From Alphaproteobacteria bacterium (lineage in GTDB: Bacteria; Pseudomonadota; Alphaproteobacteria; SP197): 64,000 nucleotides of DNA. Positions 4,944 to 9,684 of this stretch are shown here, in pieces. Location of the stretch: assembly GCA_964291265.2 (NCBI GenBank), contig OZ219747.1, forward strand, positions 480,001 through 544,000, given 5' to 3'. The position numbers and the translations under genes are program-made. Numbering within the stretch: position 1 is the stretch's first letter; each line of letters begins with the position of its first letter. The notes under the pieces were generated by a model. It was not told the origin of the DNA, made no database searches, and saw only the letters and a program-made list of their open reading frames with translations.

Positions 4944-6719
4944 GTCGGGTAGGCCACTGGCGCGCGCATCCGTAGGCAGAGGCTTTGTCCGTCACCGCTC
5001 TTTCGATTGCGGGCGGGGTCGCAGTTCTCCCATAGACCACGTTTCCAGCAGTCGGGTAGGCCGCTGGCGCGCGCATCCGTAGGCAGAGGCTTTGTCCGGC
5101 ACCGCTCTTTCGATTGCGGGCGGGGTCGCAGAACTACCATAGACCACGTTTCCAGCAGCCTCCCTAAAATTCCGTACGTCCGGTTTTCCCGGGTACGGCT
5201 TCAAGCATCAGGCACCCACTTGGAGTTCGGTGCGGAGCCTTCCGCCGAACACGCCATGGTCAAGGCTGACCCGACCATACCCACGGCATCTCCGAGCGTT
5301 TGCTCCGTCCTTCGACCTTGCAGTCTGTCGGTCGGTGCCGGTCTCTGAGTACCGACTTGACCTGCCGCATAAGCCACCTGAGCCCTGAGGTCCTCGCTCA
5401 GGACGGGTTGTGTTGTCCCGCCCGTCAACGCTTACTCGACCTCATCCGCCAGTCAGGAGGACTCCGCGTCCTTTCCCAGTCCTGGTTATAGACGCGGTCC
5501 TTGACATTCAAGGGTCACTTCATCCTGTCTGTCCTCCTCACCTTCCGGCCTTTCACTGCTGTACTGTCCCGGATTGCCGTCGTCTCTACCACGGGGAACC
5601 CGATGCGTGCTCCCCAGTTCTTCCGCATCGACTCTGGCCACCAAGCTGGGGGCAGGCCCTTGGCGTTCCCAACACCCCACAAGTCAGCTTCATGTGGGAA
5701 ATTTCATTTTCGAGGCTTCGTACAATCGTTCGCTTTCGCTACGGCCCTCCGGTTCGCTCGCCGCCCTGGCTGACCAGACCAACTGGACACTGCGTTCCAG
5801 CCAGCCCACAGCGGCTTCTACATCCCAGCTCGCTGGCCCAGGGTCACCCCTGTACCAGTGGGATATGCTACGGCGCCAAACTGGGAATTGCGCCGGCGGG
5901 ACTTTCACCCGCAAGTACAGCAGCTAGACTCGCTGCACGCCCCCCTAAAATTCCGTACGTCCGGTTTTCCCGGGTACGGCTTCAAGCATCAGGCACCCAC
6001 TTGGAGTTCGGTGCGGAGCCTTCCGCCGGACACGCCATGGTCAAAGCTGACCCATCCATACCCACGGCATCTCCTTGCGTTTGCTCCGTCCTTCGACCTT
6101 GCAGTCTGTCGGTCGGTGCCGGTCTCTGAGTACCGACTTGACCTGCCGCATAGGCCACCTGAGCCCTGAGGTCCTCGCTCGGGACGGGTTGTGTTGTCCC
6201 GCCCGTCAACGCTTACTCGACCTCATCCGCCAGTCAGGAGGACTCCGCGTCCTTTCCCAATCCTGGTTATAGACGCGGTCCTTGACATTCAAGGGTCACT
6301 TCATCCTGTCTGTCCTCCTCACCTTCCGGCCTTTCACTGCTGTACTGTCCCGGATTGCCGCCGTCTGTACCCTGGGGAACCCGATGCGTGCTCATCAGTT
6401 CTTCCGCATCGACTCTGGCCATCGGGCCGGATCCACGCCCTTGGCATTCCCGACCACCCCACAAATCAGCTTCGTGTGGGAGCATCATTTCGTGGCTTCA
6501 TCCAATCGTTCGCTTTCGCTACGGCCCTCCGGTTTGCTCGCCGCCCTGGCTGACCGAACCGGTTGGGCACTGTGTCCCAGCCAGCCCACAACGGCTTTCT
6601 ACGTCCCAGCTCGCTGGTCCAAGGTCGCCCCTGAACCAGTGGGATATGCTACGGCGCCAAACTGACAATTGCGCCGGCGGGACTTTCACCCGCAAGTACA
6701 GCAGCTAGACTCGCTGCAC
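4944..6719 (-). mobile_element. Outer ORF-less group II intron (888 nt: 6719-5939 plus 5050-4944), interrupted by a nested intron
   Basis: Minus strand begins GTGCAGCG; domain V GAAGCCGTACCCGGGAAAACCGGACGTACGGAATTT with AGC triad; domain VI with bulged A (4950); ends CCTACCCGAC; EBS1 (6429-6434) and EBS2 (6481-6486) match exon AGCATC-G-GGATCC. Confidence 0.88.
5051..5938 (-). mobile_element. Inner ORF-less group II intron (888 nt) inserted in domain VI of the outer intron
   Basis: Same GTGCAGCG start, DV, DVI with bulged A (5057) and CCTACCCGAC end; no target duplication; EBS1 GCCCCC (5648-5653) pairs with flanking GGGGGC. Confidence 0.9.
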
Positions 6720-7084
6720 GGATCCCGATGCTTGGCTGTCCGAGGAATTCGCCGCTCTCATCTTCGAAGGCTCGTGGCGCATGGGGTGTGACGGTAGAAC
6801 TCCGAACGGAGTCGGGATCGGGCGAAGTCGCCCTGCACACCCCATCGCCTGATACGTCGGCGTCACAAGGGAATGGAGCCGTCGCGGCGATTGATCGAGA
6901 CCACCGGTCCGCGATCTTCGAGCGCGTTCCGCGTTGTCGGCCGATCACAGAGGTAACAGAACGCGTCGTGGAGTGCAGAATCTTGGACTGTGGCCATCCT
7001 CGTTCTTCCGCAACCGGAACGTTGCGGCGTGGACATCCGTCATACAATCGGTCTACATTGTGGCCCAATCAGGAGGATCGACCC

Positions 7085-7342
7085 GTGCGCACCGTCGTTC
7101 GGGCCCGCATCGACGAAAGCACCAAGCGGGAAGCCGCCGCCGTACTCGACGCGATCGGCCTCACCGTGTCCGATGCCTTCCGCCTGATGATGGTGCGGAT
7201 CGCGGCCGAGAAACGCCTGCCCTTCGAGCCCCTGGTGCCGAACGCGGAGACTATCGCGGCCATGGAGGCCGCGCGGCGGGGCGACTTGGTCACGGTCGGC
7301 GATGTCGACGGCCTGATGGCCGACCTCCATGCGGACGATTAG
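7085..7342 (+). CDS. dinJ: RelB/DinJ family antitoxin
   Basis: VVRARID...AAAVLDAIGLTVSDAFRL...LPFEPLVPNAETIAAM; AGGAGG RBS at 7071-7076, GTG start. Confidence 0.85.
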   Translation: MRTVVRARIDESTKREAAAVLDAIGLTVSDAFRLMMVRIAAEKRLPFEPLVPNAETIAAMEAARRGDLVTVGDVDGLMADLHADD

Positions 7343-7343
7343 A

Positions 7344-7728
7344 CCGAAGTTCCGGACGATTTCAGCGGTATAACCACACCAAGTAGTTGATCTTGCTGAT
7401 AAAATGGCACAGAGACAGCACGCAAGTGTTCCCATGTAACGGTGAAGAACTCTTGTGACACATAAGGCCTTTTCCCCATATACGTTGCCATGTACGGGGA
7501 CATAGCCCCCAACCGCATGAGGCCCTCGCCAACAATCTCTCCTCCTGGCCCATGGAGAAGGTCGAAACCCTGCGGCCCTTCCAGGTCACCATGCGACCCA
7601 CGACGCTCCGGAAAAAGGCCCTGAACCACCTCGACGTACGCCTGTAGCGTTCCCAGTAACGTCACACCCGATTATCTCAAACATCAATACATTCATAATG
7701 ATACGTCTGATCGGTGCTGGAACTTCGG
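7344..7728 (+). mobile_element. 385-bp non-autonomous (MITE-like) internal-deletion derivative of the adjacent IS1634
   Basis: Ends CCGAAGTTCC...GGAACTTCGG identical to the IS; retains degenerate 5' and 3' ends of the transposase gene; flanked by ATTAGA. Confidence 0.9.
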
Positions 7729-7734
7729 ATTAGA

Positions 7735-9684
7735 CCGAAGTTCCGGACGATTTCAGCGGCAGAGTCACGATAACCGGTTGATTGTGTTGGCAAAATAGCG
7801 CGATGACGGCGCGAGAATGTTCCCATGTAACGGCGAAGTTTTCCCTTGACACGGTGGGCTTACGCCCCCATATACGTTGCCATGTACGTAGACATCGTCC
7901 CCAACCGTAACTCACCCCCCGCCGTCCTCCTGCGAGAGGGATGGCGCGAGAACGGCAAGGTCAAGAAGCGCACCATCGCCAATCTCTCCTCCTGGCCCAT
8001 GGAAAAGGTCGAGACCCTGCGGCGGTTCTTGAAGAACGAACCCCTCGTCGGTCGTGACGACGCCTTCGACATCGTCCGCTCCCTACCCCATGGGCATGTC
8101 GCCGCAGTGCTGGGAACCCTGAAGAAGCTGGGACTGGACAGGCTGATCGACCCGAAGCCCTCGCCTGAGCGCGATCAGGTCCTGGCCATGATCGTGGCAC
8201 GCATCCTCGAGCCCGCCTCGAAGCTGGCCACGGCCAGGGGGCTGGCCGAGGCCACGGCGGTCAGCACCCTGGGCGAGGTCCTCGATGCGGAGATGGACGA
8301 GGACGCCCTCTACGGCGCCATGGACTGGCTCCTGGAGCGTCAGGAGAGGATCGAGCGGTCCCTGGCGAAGCGGCACCTCGAAGAGGGCTGCCTGGTGCTC
8401 TATGACCTGACCTCGGTATGGATGGAGGGGAGAGCGTGTCCCCTGGCAAGGAGGGGTCATTCCCGGGATGGCAAGAAGGGCAAGCTGCAGATCGAGTTCG
8501 GCCTTCTGTGCGATCGGGACGGCTGTCCAGTGTCGGTGGAAGTGTTCCCCGGCAACACGGCGGACCCCGGGACGGTGGCATCACAGATCACCACGCTGCA
8601 GGAGCGCTTCTCCCTGGCGAAGGTGGTGCTGGTGGGAGACCGGGGGATGCTGACCGAGGCGCGCATACGCGAGGAGGTGAAGCCTGCGGGCCTGGACTGG
8701 ATCAGCGCCTTGAGGGGACCGGCCATCCGCGCCCTTGTGGAGGCCGGCGACGTCGAGATGTCGCTCTTCGACGAGAGGGACCTGGTGGAGATCACCAGCG
8801 ATGCGTATCCCGGCGAACGCCTCATGGTCTGCCGCAACCCCCTGCTGGCCGAGGACCGGGCCCGCAAGCGCCAGGAACTGCTCGAGGCCACCGAGGCCCT
8901 GCTTGAACCGATCGCCGCAGCGACACGGCGCGACAAGCGCCGTCTCAAGGGTGCCGACAAGATCGGGGAGCGGGTCGGCAAGGTCATCGGTAAATACAAG
9001 ATGGCGAAGCACTTCACGTGGTCCATCGACGACGAGGGTGTCTTCACCTATGGGCGCGATGAGGTTGCCATCGCCGCCGAGGCCAGGCTCGACGGCCTCT
9101 ACGTGATCCGCACCAGCCTGCCGCAGAGCGAGCTCGACGGTCCCGGCACAGTGCGCGCCTACAAGCGGTTGAGTTCGGTGGAACGGGCCTTCCGCAGCCT
9201 GAAGACCGTGGATCTGAAGGTCCGTCCCGTCTACCACCGCACCGAACCCCGGGTCCGCGCCCATGTCTTCCTGTGCATGCTCGCCTACTACGTGGAATGG
9301 CACATGCGCCAGAAACTGAAGCCCATGCTGTTCGACGACGAGGATGCCGAAGGCGCCGAGGCCCGGCGGCCGTCCGTCGTGGCGCCGGCAGAAGTCTCGG
9401 CGAGCGCCCGGGCCAAGGCGGCAACGAAGAGGACGCCCGGGGGTGATCCGGTGCACAGTTTCCGCACCCTCCTCGATGATCTCGCGACCATCACCCGCAA
9501 CACCGTGGCGCCCCGCCTTGCGGGCGCCAAACCCTTCCAGGTCACCACGCGGCCCACGCCGCTCCGGAAAAAGGCCCTGGACTACCTCGGCATACGCCTG
9601 CAGCATTCCCAGTAGCGACACACCCGATTTTTTCAAACGTCAATACATTCATAACGATACGTCTGATCGGTTCTGGAACTTCGG
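7735..9684 (+). mobile_element. IS1634-family insertion sequence (1950 bp)
   Basis: Terminal IRs CCGAAGTTCC/GGAACTTCGG, 6-bp ATTAGA repeats at 7729-7734 and 9685-9690. Confidence 0.9.
7882..9615 (+). CDS. IS1634-family DDE transposase
   Basis: MYVDIVPNRNSPPAVLLRE, LYDLTS, GHSRDGK, VGDRGM, VERAFRSLK, HVFLCMLAY. Confidence 0.93.
   Translation: MYVDIVPNRNSPPAVLLREGWRENGKVKKRTIANLSSWPMEKVETLRRFLKNEPLVGRDDAFDIVRSLPHGHVAAVLGTLKKLGLDRLIDPKPSPERDQVLAMIVARILEPASKLATARGLAEATAVSTLGEVLDAEMDEDALYGAMDWLLERQERIERSLAKRHLEEGCLVLYDLTSVWMEGRACPLARRGHSRDGKKGKLQIEFGLLCDRDGCPVSVEVFPGNTADPGTVASQITTLQERFSLAKVVLVGDRGMLTEARIREEVKPAGLDWISALRGPAIRALVEAGDVEMSLFDERDLVEITSDAYPGERLMVCRNPLLAEDRARKRQELLEATEALLEPIAAATRRDKRRLKGADKIGERVGKVIGKYKMAKHFTWSIDDEGVFTYGRDEVAIAAEARLDGLYVIRTSLPQSELDGPGTVRAYKRLSSVERAFRSLKTVDLKVRPVYHRTEPRVRAHVFLCMLAYYVEWHMRQKLKPMLFDDEDAEGAEARRPSVVAPAEVSASARAKAATKRTPGGDPVHSFRTLLDDLATITRNTVAPRLAGAKPFQVTTRPTPLRKKALDYLGIRLQHSQ

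Follow-up and report, generated by a model that had tools for sequence, protein, structure and literature searches.

A 64,000-nt stretch of an alphaproteobacterial genome (assembly GCA_964291265.2, contig OZ219747.1, positions 480,001–544,000; hereafter the window) contains, at 6719–4944 on the minus strand, a twintron of two group II introns that both lack an open reading frame (ORF). The inner intron is inserted at the junction between domains V and VI (DV/DVI) of the outer one. We consider it probable that the inner intron is an ORF-less element restricted to the DV/DVI junction of its sisters, which retrohomes by EBS-IBS pairing with a borrowed reverse transcriptase (RT) and is excluded from its own copies by a self mismatch. 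According to this model, the inner RNA would be transcribed within its host intron, spliced out as a lariat and bound by the borrowed RT. At the replication fork, the excised lariat would reverse-splice into the lagging-strand template, where a sister junction is exposed, and would then be copied. The helper would be the only RT of the genome, from a class-E-like intron sharing a DIVa-like RCNCAGNN hairpin with the ORF-less introns. The host would splice only after the inner intron has left (ordered splicing), and invasion would therefore handicap a competitor. A G to A change at IBS1 position -4 would lower self-homing and possibly also the pairing in cis of EBS1 with the intron's own DVI; insertion into self would meet an A-C mismatch in EBS1, and a second insertion at an already filled site would bring G against G at EBS3. 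A broader reading, in which a protein-less ribozyme lineage hijacks the RT of another class through a mimicked DIVa hairpin, retargets its EBS and attacks the core of its siblings with single-nucleotide discrimination between self and non-self (target immunity), is put forward tentatively.

Both introns are 888 nt long and differ at 62 alignment positions. An acetoin dehydrogenase gene flanks the twintron on one side and an IS1634 region on the other, with an IS1634 transposase at 7846–9615 and a remnant at ∼7340–7730. The 5' part of the outer intron, which belongs to EBS family F1, comprises domains I–V and the first 7 nt of DVI (5939..6719, minus strand, as for all the intron features below). 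The inner intron (GUGCAG...CCCGAC) occupies 5051..5938, and the 107-nt remainder of the outer DVI follows at 4944..5050, with its branch A at 4950. The insertion lies directly after GGAATTTTAGGGGGGC, that is, the 3' strand of DV and the first seven DVI bases of the outer intron; removing the inner intron in silico gives back an outer DVI that folds intact, with its bulged A.

The outer 5' exon (6720..6732) carries IBS2 AGCATC (6732–6727), a spacer G and IBS1 GGATCC (6725–6720), which are complementary to EBS2 GAUGCU (6481..6486) and EBS1 GGAUCC (6429..6434), the latter in the 9-nt loop of the Id3 stem. The probable EBS3, assigned from covariation, is C6367, facing the first 3'-exon base, a G. 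In the inner intron, EBS1 GCCCCC (5648..5653) and EBS2 UGAAAU (5701..5706; pairing extendable to 9 nt) are complementary to ATTTTA-G-GGGGGC at 5951–5939, the DV-DVI junction of the outer intron, with IBS2 ATTTTA on the 3' strand of DV and IBS1 GGGGGC on the 5' strand of DVI. The inner intron's own junction reads GGAGGC (5158..5163): the G to A change at 5161 mismatches EBS1 and keeps the stem of the folded DVI, with an A-U in place of the G-U pair beside the bulged branch A. The four EBS hexamers, the two exons, the complementarity to the outer junction and the stem-keeping mismatch had all been claimed in the initial annotation, and read as described there on the minus strand. The probable inner EBS3, G5586, forms a wobble with the first 3'-exon base, U; this G-T pair was counted against the retrohoming model. 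RmInt1 selected only Watson-Crick pairs at EBS3 (PMC4075523).

EBS1 and EBS2 track the flanking exons in 14 EBS1 lineages. For 40 distinct exon/EBS combinations (38 sites once a tandem copy and a mis-assigned nest, both included in the permutation test, are dropped), EBS1 pairing was 79.9 of 84 versus 46.9 when permuted, and EBS2 pairing 76.5 versus 58.2; the observed values were reached by 0 of 20,000 permutations for EBS1 and 0 of 20,000 for EBS2. Among the 38 usable sites, 34 have 6/6 EBS1-IBS1 pairs and four have a single mismatch (at -2, -2, -5 and -6), one of the four being an F1 site of this genome; no mismatch at -3 or -4 was found in these natural sites. By inspection, the likely EBS3 position also covaries with the first 3'-exon base, as C-G in F1, G-C in F2, U-A in the other lineages and G-U in the inner intron. 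These data bear out the earlier proposal that the inner intron is a naturally reprogrammed sister ribozyme, and natural retargeting in this intron family is, from sequence comparison, well supported. Folding gave a mixed answer on the position of the hexamers: the outer EBS1 fell in a loop, whereas the inner GCCCCC was base-paired elsewhere within domain I in the minimum-energy fold. As minimum-energy folding, of short pieces or of domain I, did not reliably show EBS loops, comparative pairing was used. The 4-bp stem closing the 9-nt EBS1 loop is paired in 94 of 100 cells (25 sequences) versus 26–55% when slid, and the loop sequence itself varies freely. The probable placement of the inner EBS1 in this loop thereby comes from comparison and not from folding. 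Compensatory changes among F1, F2 and the inner intron are also seen at alpha-alpha'.

Both introns appear to be IIB/IIF-like RNAs and were filed as IIF-like, not as class F. Their 3' end is AC and their 5' end, GUGCAG, is one base off the GUGYG consensus and conserved in the family. DV has the AGC triad and a 2-nt (AC) bulge (inner DV at 5165..5203, with its triad at 5200–5198 and a 5-nt GAAAA loop; outer DV at 5984–5946), and DVI folds with a bulged branch A 7 nt from the end. Domain I-type structure was detected with RF02003 (Rfam clan CL00102, cut-off 49 bits), at 5734–5914 in the inner intron (68 bits) and at 6514–6695 in the outer one (66.7 bits). The genome search with RF00029 did not list these intron copies, which suggests that standard surveys under-count this intron family. 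EBS1, EBS2 and EBS3 all pair with the exons. Sequence and folds give an alpha' in a terminal stem-loop, a 5-nt DV loop and a long DVI; alpha' in the terminal stem-loop of DId3, the 5-nt DV loop and, for IIF, a long D6 are features of IIE and IIF introns (Nagy et al. 2013, PMC3753933). The IIF introns described there are 450–700 nt without ORF; here the introns are 888 nt and ORF-less, and no RT-bearing member was found. The RT of lineage F is not present in domain IV, which is ∼184 nt long and has no ORF.

The genome contains six inner copies. They are identical, and 6/6 are inserted at the same base of the DV/DVI junction of a sister intron and carry GGAGGC, in agreement with the claim that sibling introns are the targets. 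The outer-type copies number seven and fall into two EBS families (six F1, one F2); the F2 copy has EBS1 CGUGAC and EBS2 GACGCU, both matching its own exon. Six of the seven host junctions are filled, as against none of the six self junctions, and a search for inner copies at GGAGGC sites or elsewhere in this genome returned none. Nesting depth never exceeds two. The empty seventh host (C2:3658598, in the contig coordinates of this genome) has an IS 21 nt downstream of its junction. The one genome match to a filled-self-junction motif was discarded as a chance match outside any intron. Two non-intron sites with full EBS1, EBS2 and EBS3 pairing are both empty, and pairing is thus not the sole determinant of insertion.

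Six identical twintron interiors could also reflect a single insertion, after which the whole twintron multiplied as one unit, or gene conversion copied it between outer introns that are nearly identical. The copies do recombine: the F2 copy and one F1 copy differ at 36 positions, all in the first 402 alignment columns, and are identical after them. However, 13 sites segregate among the five filled F1 hosts versus 0 in the inner copies (binomial 1.2e-4), which indicates that the inner intron spread after the hosts had diverged; host polymorphisms persist ∼90 nt from the insertion site on both sides, and splicing as a unit requires an intact outer intron. The distribution of the sites on the replichores argues against it as well. 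From GC skew, the origin is at about 0.72 Mb and the terminus at about 3.25–3.29 Mb, and 6/6 filled sites are in leading-strand orientation versus 0/2 empty sibling sites (the empty host at C2:3658598 and a remnant junction at C2:1767746; Fisher 0.036). The RT-bearing introns of the genome have the same leading-strand orientation in 17 of 18 cases. This pattern is reported for endonuclease-less introns such as RmInt1 (PMC4075523) and favours retrohoming over gene conversion. The sorting of filled and empty sites by replication orientation thus points to retrohoming, and a single insertion is highly improbable.

Several further arrangements were noted among these copies. Two complete twintrons, whose hosts differ at 5 positions, stand in tandem at one target site (C2:3769211–3772762); this fits re-insertion at the 5' junction, the intron's first G being able to serve as IBS3. 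The last 67 nt of the intron occur alone in an F2-type target site (C2:3544651–3544718) and look like the 5'-truncated product of an aborted reverse transcription. IS1634-type elements interrupt domain VI of two family copies (C2:3659399–3661348 and ∼1767660). The outer introns lie mostly in multicopy elements, with at least one flank present 5–11 times in the genome (C2:1366526, 3117383, 3658598, 3772762 and 4091336).

It had been suggested that the mismatch lets the inner intron avoid self-insertion. The distribution agrees with avoidance, as none of the six self sites is filled; the part of the claim that made GGAGGC the cause, or a selected trait, goes further than this distribution. If self sites were equally good targets, the chance of all hosts filling first would be 0.015 with six permissive sites and 0.043 with seven. 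With RNA-RNA duplexes as a proxy, pairing energy is -12.5 kcal/mol for the host site versus -6.2 kcal/mol for the self site, which a bulged-A register brings to -8.7 kcal/mol. A G-U pair at this position probably favours branching. The DVI stem survives 2 of 18 single IBS1 changes, and of these two the G to A at -4 is the only one that also breaks EBS1 pairing. The base is G, and not A, in all 26 close-relative copies with intact DV (10 other genomes) and in 6 close metagenome copies; five GGAGGC copies of a distant short-DVI subfamily were left out of this comparison because the A there is not the pair beside the branch A. Judged from these sequences, the G to A change likely reduces self-homing, and a role of the one-base mismatch as protection from self-invasion is plausible; the case for selection on reduced self-homing is evenly balanced. 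The self-mismatch is one event in one genome.

Targeting might be real and the mismatch incidental, a neutral or pre-existing DVI variant, the self sites being empty as the inner copies are too young. The variant can indeed exist without self-targeting: L066, a copy in another genome (G061), has GGAGGC with a different EBS1 (GCCGAU), with a broken DV that lacks the triad, and its near-identical kin L045 and L075 have G. By a rough estimate, about five inner-specific changes in ∼500 nt give a ∼6% chance of one falling in IBS1. In genome G065, the 12 GCCUGC-type copies that were seen all match their own site and all leave it unfilled; self sites can thus be empty through youth alone, without immunity. 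Set against this are the filling of all six permissive host sites with no self fill, the unique character of the observed change and the fixation of G in the 32 close copies with intact DV, and we regard an incidental mismatch as unlikely. Selection could instead have acted at the RNA level, the mismatch blocking EBS1 pairing or cleavage at the intron's own DVI strand and self-protection at the DNA level being a by-product. EBS1 GCCCCC with an own GGGGGC would form a duplex of -12.5 kcal/mol competing with the branch helix; in vitro, the 5' splice site of IIE and IIF introns is set by EBS1-IBS1 alone, and alternative sites are in use in one IIF intron (PMC3753933). The DV-DVI fold is nevertheless stable (-65 to -68 kcal/mol), so the own DVI strand is probably sequestered from EBS1, and we hold this explanation to be quite unlikely.

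Self-insertion could also occur and be erased, nested identical copies collapsing by recombination. Such a balance is described for the nested introns of Methanosarcina (PMC4424553), and partly collapsed nests exist in G065, where a relative with an EBS that fits its own sequence is inserted, at a domain IV site, in copies nearly identical to itself. Five G065 loci have a nested junction, to which L112 (three tails) and L129 (a spare tail) are added, and the heads of the nested copies differ at 8–10 of 584 nt. This association of a self-matching EBS with self-nesting also speaks for a protective role of the mismatch in the inner intron. In G065, partial collapse can be recognised by the extra 3' tails that it leaves; in the present genome the inner-type tails number exactly six, one for each inner copy, and the tandem pair of twintrons persists. 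Hidden self-insertion is therefore very unlikely, and exclusion of the inner intron from its own copies is the preferred reading. The nesting G065 member has a short DVI and leaves tallies of 271-nt tails (L104, L112, L116, L129, L143–L145). A G061 lineage that targets siblings and has a self-mismatch in IBS2 (L043/L061) was rejected as support: the effect is small (-5.5 versus -4.3 kcal/mol), the change is common to non-self-targeting kin and most G061 sites are empty.

The genome gave 18 matches each to PF00078 and PF08388, all from one intron family, which is the only RT family of the genome; the protein is a group II RT/maturase (NCBIfam, 355.9 bits). We take the RNA of this RT-bearing intron to be class-E-like from its 5-nt DV loop and its short DVI. 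No extended sequence similarity was found between it and the ORF-less family. In both, a hairpin whose 8-nt loop reads RCNCAGNN lies close to where domain IV begins. In the inner intron it lies at 5334..5359 (loop ACUCAGAG), a candidate site for the helper RT, and in the outer copy at 6115–6140. Of 37 family sequences, 29 have this hairpin; in 5 more the loop is shortened by a deletion, and in 3 the same stem holds ACGCGGAG. Nine RT loci were examined and 7 of them have it, and shuffled sequences gave it in 29 of 2000 cases. The stem covaries, its 100% pairing being partly by construction, as rows were chosen for pairing. In studied introns, subdomain IVa is the RT binding site (PMC12584367). 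The only RT of the genome is thus, on the evidence of this hairpin and of its being alone, the likely helper of the ORF-less introns, although common ancestry of the hairpin is possible. The DV/DVI junction of the RT-bearing intron itself lacks a good IBS2 and holds no inner copy. An RT-bearing parent sought with RF02003 in 151 genomes yielded other intron types only, and the hairpin is absent from the top three RT-associated hits. The class-E-like intron is itself host to a second, unrelated ORF-less group II intron (C2:1375422–1376275, plus four partial copies), which has no RCNCAG hairpin in domain IV. Fifteen near-identical ORF-deleted derivatives of the class-E-like intron are also present (C2:376740–377450 and 14 more), 13 of them in leading orientation. 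Three ORF-less families thus appear to draw on a single RT family.

Searching with an exact DV/DVI pattern gave 43 matches at 39 loci, mostly from alphaproteobacterial MAGs, in the genome collection, and 21 loci in metagenomes. No second DV/DVI twintron was found among these 43 and 21 matches or in 32 other genomes of the order, and no RT was found in domain IV of the family loci from both searches; viral contigs and plasmids gave no family match. Other group II introns make up many of the family's targets; besides the inner intron, two lineages aim at siblings, in domain IV (G061 and G065). Separate EBS lineages (L041, L050, L054, L055, L056 and L045) target different conserved spots in class-E-like RT introns. 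The initial annotation had raised the possibility that the family diversifies its targets by EBS exchange: diversification through EBS changes is seen, whereas exchange by recombination is hinted at by one mosaic copy, the F2 copy, whose differences from one F1 copy are confined to the first 402 columns, as domain I exchange might leave them. Point mutation could also be the source of the EBS differences. The inner EBS2 and EBS3 (5698–5706 and 5586) pair better with a junction variant common in other genomes (TTTCA...|C; -6.5 kcal/mol versus -4.3 kcal/mol with the present hosts), which suggests that the inner intron may have arisen on a related host lineage.

Twintrons and EBS retargeting are already known from the TeI3/TeI4 introns of Thermosynechococcus elongatus (Mohr, Ghanem and Lambowitz 2010, PMC2882425). 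As there, sisters are split into EBS families, an ORF-less family is aimed by its EBS at one fixed site in its sisters, and inner copies are identical whereas outer ones have diverged; mobilisation in trans is described for T. elongatus and inferred here. The T. elongatus site is in domain IV, between two ORF start codons, and not at the catalytic DV/DVI junction. The helper protein is there encoded by a sister intron, within the same family, that has an ORF; this has no counterpart here, where the candidate comes from a different intron class. The T. elongatus RNA is IIB1/CL; in the present twintron both partners are ORF-less and the invader's own version of the target sequence is mismatched. 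The nested introns of Methanosarcina acetivorans likewise home site-specifically into group II introns outside host genes, but in stacks of up to five, whereas depth here never exceeds two (PMC4424553, PMC2882425); according to the title of Dai and Zimmerly (2003) they home into related intron ORFs, and here the ribozyme structure is targeted. The lycophyte mitochondrial cox1i1149g2 is similarly inserted in a near-copy of itself (PMC7049729), but it is organellar, uses a domain IV site, has a degenerate inner copy and shows no self-avoidance. In the literature covered by our searches, we found no description of an intron that targets the DV/DVI junction of sister introns or of one that mismatches its own copy of the target, nor of two ORF-less twintron partners or a helper of another class. 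If the proposed model is true, it describes a minimal self/non-self system among selfish RNAs that rests on one base. A target in the catalytic core is renewable, since every member of the family has one. Mobilisation by a protein of another class would, if true, broaden the accepted view, in which ORF-less introns rely on close relatives. With at least 14 EBS1 programmes on a single scaffold, the family also forms a natural library that is of use for the targeting rules of IIF-like introns.

Lastly, every full copy seen in G061 lacks the same 7 nt of DV, including two bases of the AGC triad (L043–L045, L056, L057, L061, L063, L065, L066, L072 and L075). This deletion spans several EBS lineages and nested copies, and there are many other short deletions.
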